From Escherichia coli (GTDB taxonomy: Bacteria > Pseudomonadota > Gammaproteobacteria > Enterobacterales > Enterobacteriaceae), in assembly GCF_044324785.1 (NCBI RefSeq), contig NZ_CP172127.1: DNA of 64,000 nucleotides; one strand, written 5' to 3'. The notes under the pieces were generated by a model. That model made no database searches, was not told the DNA's origin, and saw nothing but the letters and a program-made list of their open reading frames with translations. The translations under genes and the position numbers were made by a program. Shown here piece after piece: positions 34,670 through 47,531 of this stretch (within the stretch, counting starts at the first letter, position 1; every line of letters begins with the position of its first letter).

Positions 34670-36310
34670 TCACACCGTAGCGAAACTAACTGGTTCACCA
34701 GCTCCGCGAGGTTCTGCCGACACAGAATGTTTGTTCAGACGGAATACGTCCACCGCCTCAGTTAATCGTGCCGCCTGTTCTTCAAGGGACACCGCCGCCG
34801 CTGAGGCCTCTTCTACCAGAGAAGCATTCTGTTGCGTCACCTTATCCATTTCAGAAATCGCCTGGCTAACCTGTGTTATGCCTCTGCTTTGTTCATCCGA
34901 GGCGGCGGCGATTTCCTGCATGATATGTGTGACACTCGCGACGGCATCAACAATAGTGCTCATGGTTTTCCCTGCCGTTGCCACCTCATCCGACCCCAGG
35001 TCAATTAACCTGACTGATTCACTGATCAAGCCTTCAATCTCTTTCGACGCCTGAGCGCTGCGGCTTGCGAGTGTCCGTACTTCGCTGGCGACAACGGCAA
35101 ATCCACGCCCTTGCTCACCCGCTCGCGCGGCTTCAACGGCAGCATTCAGTGCCAGAATATTCGTCTGGAAAGCAATACTGTTGATGACGGCGGTGATCTC
35201 AGAAATTTTCTTCGAACTCGTGGAGATAGCGCCCATCGTTTTTACTACACCGGAAACCGTCTGCCCGCCATCGCTGGCTTTAATAGAAGCCTCCTGCGCC
35301 AGTTTGCTGGCATAATGCGCGTTATCCGCATTCTGTTTCACCGTCGCAGTGAGTTGCTCCATGCTGGCGGCAGTTTGTTCAATTGCCGCCGCTTGTTCTT
35401 CAGTGCGAGATGAAAGGTCCGCATTGCCAGCGGAAATTTCGCTGGTGCCACGATAAATCTCTTCCGCGCCCTGTCGAACGGTCCCTACTGTCATCCCCAG
35501 TGAATGCTGCATTTGCTGTAAATGACGACTTAAGCGACCGATTTCATTACGACCCGCCGGTTCATCATTCATCGTCAGATCGCCACTGGCGATTTTTTCA
35601 ATTCGTTGTGCGGCATGTTGCAGTGGACGAATGACAATCCGACGTAGCACTATAAATGTTATCAGCGTCATGACCAGGGCAAGCACAAACGCGCCAATCA
35701 TGAACATCCCACCCAGGCGGGTGCGCTGATGGGCCAGTTCCGCCAGTTGGTTGGCTCTGGTGCTACGTATCTTAACGGCTTTGCTCAAAATATCGGTATA
35801 AGCATTATCCAGCGGTCGGATCTGCTCACTTTCATGATTGATAATCGCTTCAAACATGCCATTTTTGGCATATTTCAACATCGGTTGCATACCCGTGATA
35901 TAAGCCTGGAAGCGTTGATTTAATTCAGTGTCGAGGGCTTCATCAGCAGGTGTTTTCACCGGCCGATTCTGATAAGCACGATACCCTTGCTGCGACTGTT
36001 TAATCTCCGATTCGGCTTGCGCAATATTTCGCTTCATTGCTTCCATTTCCGCAATACGACTCGCTGCCCCGGCCTGAATCATATTGATCCGGGCTGAACG
36101 CAAAAAATCTGAACTGTTCGCTAACCCGGTCCGAATCTCAATCTCCGCAGTAACATCCCGCTGATCGCGATCGGCCTGCCAAAGGAAATAGCCGGCCAGG
36201 GCTGAACTTAATGCGAATAGAACTAAGATACCGCCAAGAATGCAGGCAAATAACGGAACCAGCCTGATGTGATGCAAAAAACCTAATCGCTGTGAGGGAG
36301 TTGTAATCAT
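34670..36310 (-). CDS. trg: Methyl-accepting chemotaxis protein III (ribose/galactose sensor)
   Basis: 546-aa ORF with two TM segments, HAMP domain and conserved MCP signalling domain. Confidence 0.9.
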
Positions 36311-36349
36311 TACCGTTGTCTCTCGTCCAGGTTTACTCCTGATAGAAAG

Positions 36350-36376
36350 TCATCGGCACTTGACGGTAATTACTTA
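36350..36376 (-). promoter_or_regulatory. Putative sigma-28 (FliA) promoter of trg
   Basis: On the minus strand, TAAG-N15-GCCGATGA matches the sigma-28 consensus TAAA-N15-GCCGATAA, about 40 to 65 nt upstream of the trg ATG. Confidence 0.5.
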
Positions 36377-36594
36377 TGACCAAAAACCTCTTTGCGTCAC
36401 ATTTTTACAACAATTATGGCAGAGAAGAATAATGCCATTGGAATGAAGAGAGTAACGAATGGCTAAACCGAATGACGAAAAATTCTGGAAAACAGCACGC
36501 AATTTCGTCAAGTGATTATTTTCGTCCCTAAGGAAACCTCATAGGATGCCTGCGGGTGCCTGAGACTTTCTGTTTTCAGGCTAACCGGGAATCA

Positions 36595-36641
36595 GAAAGA
36601 CGAAGGCCCCGACCGATATTTCTATCAACCGAGGCCAACGA

Positions 36642-36660
<19 letters not shown>
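36595..36660 (-). ncRNA. sokB: Possible SokB antisense RNA (type I antitoxin); position approximate
   Basis: Inferred only from the hok/sok paradigm: the antisense RNA should overlap the mokB translation start at 36642. Ends are not determinable by eye. Confidence 0.25.
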
Positions 36661-36849
<189 letters not shown>

Positions 36850-37264: not shown

Positions 37265-37328
37265 CTTCCGATGTAGACCCGTATTCTTCGCCTGTACCAC
37301 GGGTCGGTTTTAGTACAGGCGTTTTCTT
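37265..37328 (+). ncRNA. rydC: RydC small regulatory RNA (Hfq-dependent)
   Basis: Sequence cttccgatgtagacccgtattcttcgcctgtaccacgggtcggttttagtacaggcgttttctt matches RydC as I remember it; ends in a hairpin plus U-tract; located between ydcA and cybB. Confidence 0.8.
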
Positions 37329-42421: not shown

Positions 42422-42717
42422 AAAATAAAATCATCACTCCTGTCCTTACTGAAAACAAAGTGAATTTGATAGCAGAAAAATATTGTAAAAAGTATAATCT
42501 TAATGGCTCGCTGGCATACAAAATCACTGCTATTAAATTTCTTCCTGATGGTATGAAATCATACGACCTTGATATTCCATTATGGATGGTAGTCAGAGAT
42601 GTTAAAGGTTGGGATGATATGGAAATTACGATTTTTATTTCTGACAAAAACAGTGAAGTTCTTTGTTGCAGTAATATTTGGTATCCAGTATATCGTCCTC
42701 ATCAAGCAGATTTGTAA
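42418..42717 (+). CDS. Hypothetical protein, 99 aa, translationally coupled to the upstream SUKH gene
   Basis: ATG at 42418 overlaps the upstream TGA (ATGA); GGAG lies 5 to 8 nt upstream. The ORF track lists the same frame starting at 42406. No recognisable domain. Confidence 0.5.
   Translation: MKNKIITPVLTENKVNLIAEKYCKKYNLNGSLAYKITAIKFLPDGMKSYDLDIPLWMVVRDVKGWDDMEITIFISDKNSEVLCCSNIWYPVYRPHQADL

Positions 42718-46916: not shown

Positions 46917-47531
<615 letters not shown>

Follow-up and report, generated by a model that had tools for sequence, protein, structure and literature searches.

A FliA (sigma-28) promoter aided by cAMP-CRP upstream of trg in an Escherichia coli genome

The element found upstream of trg in a 64,000-nucleotide stretch of E. 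coli DNA (the window) is almost certainly the trg promoter used by the FliA (sigma-28) RNA polymerase, aided by cAMP-CRP. The trg promoter is already known and has been experimentally characterised. The K-12 data on FliA occupancy, fliA dependence, transcription start, CRP binding and CRP activation come from DNA that agrees base for base with the window, beginning at 36343 and reaching at least 36418 (-1 to -76); the same regulation would be expected in the strain analysed here, with CRP presumably acting by the mechanism worked out at aer. FliA would recognise TAAGTAAT as -35 and GCCGATGA as -10 element, set 11 nt apart, and transcription would proceed from the A at 36343, giving rise to a 33-nt leader. 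The core departs from consensus, most clearly at the -35 element, and cAMP-CRP bound at 36383..36404, about 49.5 bp upstream of the start, would assist it. By way of CRP, the ribose/galactose receptor would be expressed according to carbon-source status. Both the placing of trg in the late flagellar regulon and the link made by CRP between ribose/galactose chemotaxis and carbon source have been published. What is added here is where exactly the start and the CRP site fall in the window, together with a footprint across genera; beyond correct annotation, the consequences are few.

The window is part of an E. coli chromosome. In genome comparisons the 2.1-kb segment over the site had an identity of 100% with strain N3, and of 95-99% with more than 5,400 complete genomes; the genes annotated there are ydcI, trg and hokB. 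The downstream gene, starting with the ATG at 36310 on the minus strand, is trg according to the RefSeq record, whose sequence shows no difference across the 2.1 kb compared (100% identity). Its product matches methyl-accepting chemotaxis protein models; no Trg-specific NCBIfam model was found at its cut-off, and the NCBIfam matches were to general chemoreceptor models, below their cut-offs. Because of this, the identity of trg rests on the RefSeq annotation and on near-identity to K-12 trg. All coordinates were taken from the genome sequence, and not from the published trg100 text, in which reading errors such as extra A's occur. The features of the region, all on the minus strand, are the following.

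34670..36310, minus strand: trg coding sequence, 546 aa, intact (ORF list and translation, matching the RefSeq annotation)
36311..36342, minus strand: remainder of the leader, with a weak GAGAG ribosome-binding region (from the start-to-ATG distance)
36343, minus strand: transcription start, +1 = A (51-mer of Cho et al. mapped to the window)
36349..36376, minus strand: 28-nt FliA (sigma-28) promoter motif TAAGTAATTACCGTCAAGTGCCGATGAC (direct reading, pattern search and the table of Fitzgerald et al.)
36350..36357, minus strand: -10 element GCCGATGA, -14 to -7, matching GCCGATAA at 7/8 positions, with the CGA core intact
36369..36376, minus strand: -35 element TAAGTAAT, -33 to -26 from the mapped start, matching TAAAGTTT at 4/8 positions
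36383..36404, minus strand: CRP binding site AAATGTGACGCAAAGAGGTTTT, centred near -49.5/-50.5 (published binding and activation on the K-12 fragment, and aer-like spacing)

Read on the minus strand the site is 5'-CATAAGTAATTACCGTCAAGTGCCGATGACTTT-3', and the coding-strand sequence upstream of trg is CATAAGTAATTACCGTCAAGTGCCGATGACTTTCTATCAGG. TAAG is found at 36376..36373, and is followed, after a 15-nt spacer, by GCCGATGA at 36357..36350. The earlier note on this DNA had described this arrangement as a FliA-type promoter; TAAG-N15-GCCGATGA lies exactly at 36350..36376 and is the sole such match in the window. The looser pattern TAAR-N15-GCCGATRA similarly occurs once in the 64 kb, both strands considered, with 0.02 matches expected from dinucleotide shuffles. 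Both spacings, 11 nt between the octamers and 15 nt between TAAG and GCCGATGA, are canonical. The -35 octamer retains just TAA of the TAAA core and is weak taken alone; its match is within the range of FliA-bound sites, such as that of cvrA (TAAGTAAA).

A weight matrix was derived from Table 2 of Fitzgerald et al. 2014, using the 51 FliA sites other than that of trg, or only the 24 strong ones. The trg site scores 14.7-15.8 bits, which makes it the second or third best of 128,000 window positions, and ranks mid-range, 27th-32nd, among 52 published FliA sites. Matches equally good arise by chance 0.3-0.7 times per shuffled 64-kb window, and 0.001-0.002 times per 300-nt upstream region on one strand. 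The motif match is not significant at the scale of the window, and is significant given its position and strand before trg. As a stand-alone test the matrix is not decisive, 2-3 window positions scoring as well. The scan, which the earlier note had suggested, puts the trg site among the top three of the window, and this is the only one of them correctly placed upstream of a gene. The motif by itself would be unconvincing; the case is carried by position, orientation and outside evidence. The frequency of chance matches is also what gives some room to the view that the resemblance is fortuitous, and that trg is read by the sigma-70 or sigma-38 polymerase, from another promoter between trg and hokB.

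Two other FliA-motif matches score as high as the trg site. One, CAAATTTCACATCAGTAATGCCGATAAA, is located at 47412..47439 (-), antisense within azoR; the other, TACAAATCTGCTTGATGAGGACGATATA, at 42689..42716 (-), antisense within a hypothetical gene. For neither was a counterpart found among published FliA ChIP-seq peaks. FliA often binds silent sites within genes, and these two are either such sites or mere coincidences of sequence.

Evidence for FliA dependence comes from several studies in K-12. Fitzgerald, Bonocora and Wade 2014 (PMC4183435) list TAAGTAATTACCGTCAAGTGCCGATGAC as the trg FliA ChIP-seq motif, with a signal 23-fold above threshold. In the same study deletion of fliA lowered the trg RNA-seq value of motile MG1655 from 108 to 4, a significant change. 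In the microarrays of Zhao et al. 2007 (PMC1935009) trg was 2.0-fold down in a fliA deletion and 2.2-fold up with sigma-F induction, and a trg::lacZ fusion was found to be sigma-28-dependent by Hollands et al. 2010 (PMC2859248). In the genomic SELEX study of Shimada et al. 2017 trg is unmentioned in the main text. The comparison of fliA-positive and fliA-negative backgrounds, by which the earlier note proposed to check the promoter, had therefore been made in K-12, with loss of trg RNA upon removal of fliA. The FliA-type promoter is thus borne out by the identity of the 28-mer to the published ChIP-seq site, by this loss, and by the position of the start.

The start is known from Table S4 of Cho et al. 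2014 (PMC3923258), which reports a 5'-triphosphate-enriched end at MG1655 position 1490461 (+), with 8 reads, in one condition, stationary phase. The 51-mer given there for -50 to +1 matches the window at 36393..36343 (-) without mismatch and sets +1 at 36343, 7 nt past the -10 octamer as mapped in MG1655. A start inconsistent with the element had been named as the outcome that would speak against a sigma-28 promoter; the published +1, 7 nt after GCCGATGA, fits it. Initiation by sigma-70 or sigma-38 at another point between trg and hokB finds some ground in a weak sigma-70-like site, TTGACG-18-CAGAAT (9/12), located at 36511..36482 (-), 130-170 nt farther upstream, and in the sigma-70 and sigma-38 ChIP-chip signal detected over the region by Cho et al. 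(PMC3923258). However, the start at 36343 is the single one listed for trg by Cho et al., none being reported at the sigma-70-like site; trg RNA is 27-fold lower without fliA (PMC4183435); and the ChIP-chip region spans also the hokB and sokB promoters, which could explain the signal. Taken with the conservation described below, this makes a chance resemblance extremely unlikely, and the hypothesis is largely refuted.

Alternatively, the start may be shared by the sigma-28 and sigma-38 holoenzymes, trg receiving in this way a stationary-phase input outside the flagellar cascade. Cho et al. (PMC3923258) attribute this start to sigma-38 as well; it bears the label 'SF' (binding plus motif) in their data, and was seen in stationary phase. 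Their ChIP-chip data are, however, of low resolution, and the FliA ChIP-chip data of the same group were judged rich in false positives by Fitzgerald et al. (PMC4183435). No sigma-70/38-type -10 hexamer is found at the right distance from 36343, and the b1421 row of an rpoS-deletion microarray shows no significant change. A shared start is judged very improbable; any sigma-38 or sigma-70 input would be minor, because trg RNA falls 27-fold without fliA. Usage of the start by the FliA polymerase remains the preferred reading.

The trg 5' leader, from 36343 to 36311, +1 included, is 33 nt long. A structured leader was considered and rejected, because the hairpin CAGG-N6-CCTG is no stabler than shuffled sequence; z-scores range from -0.35 to +0.6 versus shuffles for leader hairpins of both the E. 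coli and the Enterobacter/Citrobacter types. A match to the Rfam family SNORA29 at 36352..36476 (E = 0.92) was dismissed as fortuitous.

A second component of the promoter is the CRP site. Hollands et al. 2010 (PMC2859248) tested 8 well-characterised sigma-28-dependent regulatory regions, and found direct activation by CRP at aer and trg only. CRP shifts the trg fragment in gel assays, and full activity of the trg100::lacZ fusion needs both sigma-28 and CRP (PMC2859248). The trg CRP site is spaced from the promoter elements as the site at aer, the centre of which is at -49.5 (PMC2859248). In the window the CRP 22-mer is followed by 6 nt and then by the -35 octamer TAAGTAAT. In the aer promoter sequence, rebuilt from the primers of Hollands et al., the CRP 22-mer is likewise 6 nt from the -35 octamer. 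Compared to TGTGA-N6-TCACA, the trg 22-mer matches at 5/5 positions in the left half and at 0/5 in the right half, and at 13/22 positions overall; it is identical in a K-12-like strain.

These data modify in part what had been read earlier from the letters. The assignment to sigma-28 stands; the implied plain class 3 promoter does not, as CRP activates trg directly from a site upstream of the -35 element. An activator-free class 3 promoter, with the upstream TGTGA irrelevant, could be argued for from the absence of any match in the right half of the site, from the finding that transcription of aer in vitro is CRP-independent at high RNA polymerase concentration, and from genera that keep the sigma-28 element and lack TGTGA at this position (see below). 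It is contradicted by the binding of CRP to the trg fragment and by its activation of trg100::lacZ when FliA is supplied, whatever the crp status, from a plasmid (PMC2859248), by a spacing between CRP site and -35 element identical to that at aer, and by the conservation of TGTGA in most orthologous segments. An activator-free promoter is thus very unlikely, and CRP-aided transcription is retained.

A natural test of CRP dependence at trg is provided by E. coli GPEC1176, where unrelated DNA adjoining a helix-turn-helix gene replaces all that lies upstream of CAAAGAGG (locus L005, 335..410, corresponding to the window from about 36395 on in the upstream direction). The replacement leaves the sigma-28 core untouched and takes away the TGTGA half of the CRP site.

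The trg promoter can be compared to other known promoters. The 28-mer, the CRP 22-mer, the start, the leader and the ATG of the K-12 trg promoter (PMC4183435; trg100, PMC2859248) are all the same in the window. Relative to a K-12-like strain, the window differs over a 171-bp segment by 4 substitutions upstream of the CRP site, and by 1 further substitution in trg codon 2, Ile for Asn. The promoter of aer resembles that of trg in having a sub-consensus sigma-28 core, a CRP 22-mer 6 nt from the -35 element and a chemoreceptor-type product. It differs in its -10 (GCCGACAT) and -35 (TAAAGATA) elements. Its CRP site is closer to consensus (17/22 versus 13/22, by our own count on the primer-derived aer sequence), and its start, determined by primer extension, is 6 bp past the octamer versus 7 nt at trg. 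Mechanistic detail, i.e. placement of the alpha-CTD and in vitro reconstitution, comes from aer only. The class 3 promoters of tar, tsr, fliC, motA, flgM and flgK have in common with trg the TAAA-N15-GCCGATAA architecture and FliA dependence. The promoters of tar, flgMN, motAB, tsr, flgKL and fliDST score 20-29 bits, whereas fliC, at 15-16 bits, is about equal to trg (15-16). At these canonical class 3 promoters no direct effect of CRP was seen, 6 fragments being without clear CRP binding (PMC2859248); CRP does bind at tsr, 132.5 bp ahead of the promoter, with no detectable effect on expression (PMC2859248).

To assess conservation, the N-terminal 288 residues of Trg were searched against 100,044 species genomes, and 80 loci with 56-88% identity were retrieved (loci are denoted by L and a number). 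They belong to more than 20 genera of Enterobacteriaceae, among which Escherichia, Citrobacter, Enterobacter, Lelliottia, Leclercia, Kluyvera, Kosakonia, Phytobacter, Trabulsiella, Pluralibacter, Mangrovibacter and Buttiauxella. TAA-N16-GCCGATGAC is carried by 79/80 loci, and in as many the best weight-matrix match in the 300 nt upstream is this same element; at the remaining locus, L054, the assembly is interrupted by a gap just where the site would be. This constancy argues further against a chance resemblance. Scores of at least 12 bits were obtained in 69/80 loci, versus 1% of 395 control regions, and the spacings of 11 nt and 15 nt are held in all 79 sites. The element ends 33-52 nt before the inferred start codon in 76 of the 79 loci. 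Two Mangrovibacter loci, L082 and L083, are out of this range, probably because the start codon was placed too far downstream by the script, since a third Mangrovibacter locus, L084, has the same promoter 48 nt before an ATG. In the remaining out-of-range locus, L035 of Enterobacter mori, a GC-rich, repeat-like insert of about 190 bp (1228..1470) is interposed between the sigma-28 promoter and the trg start codon, and lengthens the leader to about 240 nt.

Conservation was monitored position by position in 79 distinct promoter segments (78 from orthologous loci plus the window), anchored on the -10 element. In this element G-14, C-12, G-11, A-10 and T-9 are invariant, C-13 is conserved in 99% of the segments, and 92% have the non-consensus G at -8. 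In the -35 element T-33 and A-32 are conserved in 99%, A-31 in 100% and A-27 in 90% of the segments. The spacer between the two elements is essentially unconstrained. Conserved elements separated by a free spacer are the footprint expected of a two-element promoter. Upstream, a T-tract at -42..-39 is 94-97% conserved, and 71/79 segments have TGTGA where Escherichia has it, or shifted by 1 bp. Kluyvera, Mangrovibacter, Dryocola and Buttiauxella lack it there, and all keep the sigma-28 element. In most non-Escherichia genera (L010-L081) TGTGA is 1 bp farther from the -35 element than in Escherichia (36397..36401), and the right half of the CRP site is (T/C)GGCG versus GAGGT. The shift might mean that the unusual geometry of the CRP site is tolerant of a change of one base, or adapted to it.

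The footprint, a sigma-28 core with a non-consensus G and a CRP half-site conserved in most trg-bearing Enterobacteriaceae, supports the published model and supplies natural variants to test it. The G of GCCGATGA is rare in the other E. coli FliA sites, being found in 2/51 by our own count on the table of Fitzgerald et al. The non-consensus G (92% of the segments, more than 20 genera), the weak -35 element and the CRP half-site are all kept, and on this account the departures from consensus might themselves be selected, selection keeping the promoter below its optimum and Trg, in consequence, a scarce receptor gated by CRP. We regard this as a tentative idea, rather doubtful at present.

Among 5 diverse E. 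coli strains the 28-mer differs at one position only, a spacer base in O157:H7. The 171-bp promoter segment was found in 4,499/5,426 complete genomes, and about 17% are without it. A deletion known in the B2 phylogroup removes the 5' part of trg, the promoter and mokB, and leaves a truncated regulator gene, tls (PMC12623472); the genomes without the segment largely reflect this deletion.

The trg promoter is flanked upstream by the hokB/mokB/sokB type I toxin-antitoxin locus (36554..36849, plus strand), which is divergent from trg. Within it the Rfam family sok is matched at 36554..36705 (111 bits), and the annotated hokB gene occupies 36700..36849. The start published for hokB/mokB, MG1655 1490241, falls at about 36563 in the window; its distance to the trg start is 220 bp. 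A 14-bp stem with a T-rich tail, found inside the hokB/sokB region at 36605..36636 (-), could represent the terminator of sokB, or else belong to the fold-back structure of the hok mRNA. A full-length RydC small RNA gene (Rfam RF00505, 92.5 bits) is located at 37265..37328 (+). In some strains IS150 is found between trg and hokB, as in E. coli E7-1N7 (L087, about 2220..3700, corresponding to about window 36600-36700). The insertion lies in the part that encodes the hokB mRNA leader, about 300 nt ahead of the trg ATG, and should therefore disrupt hokB and not the trg promoter.
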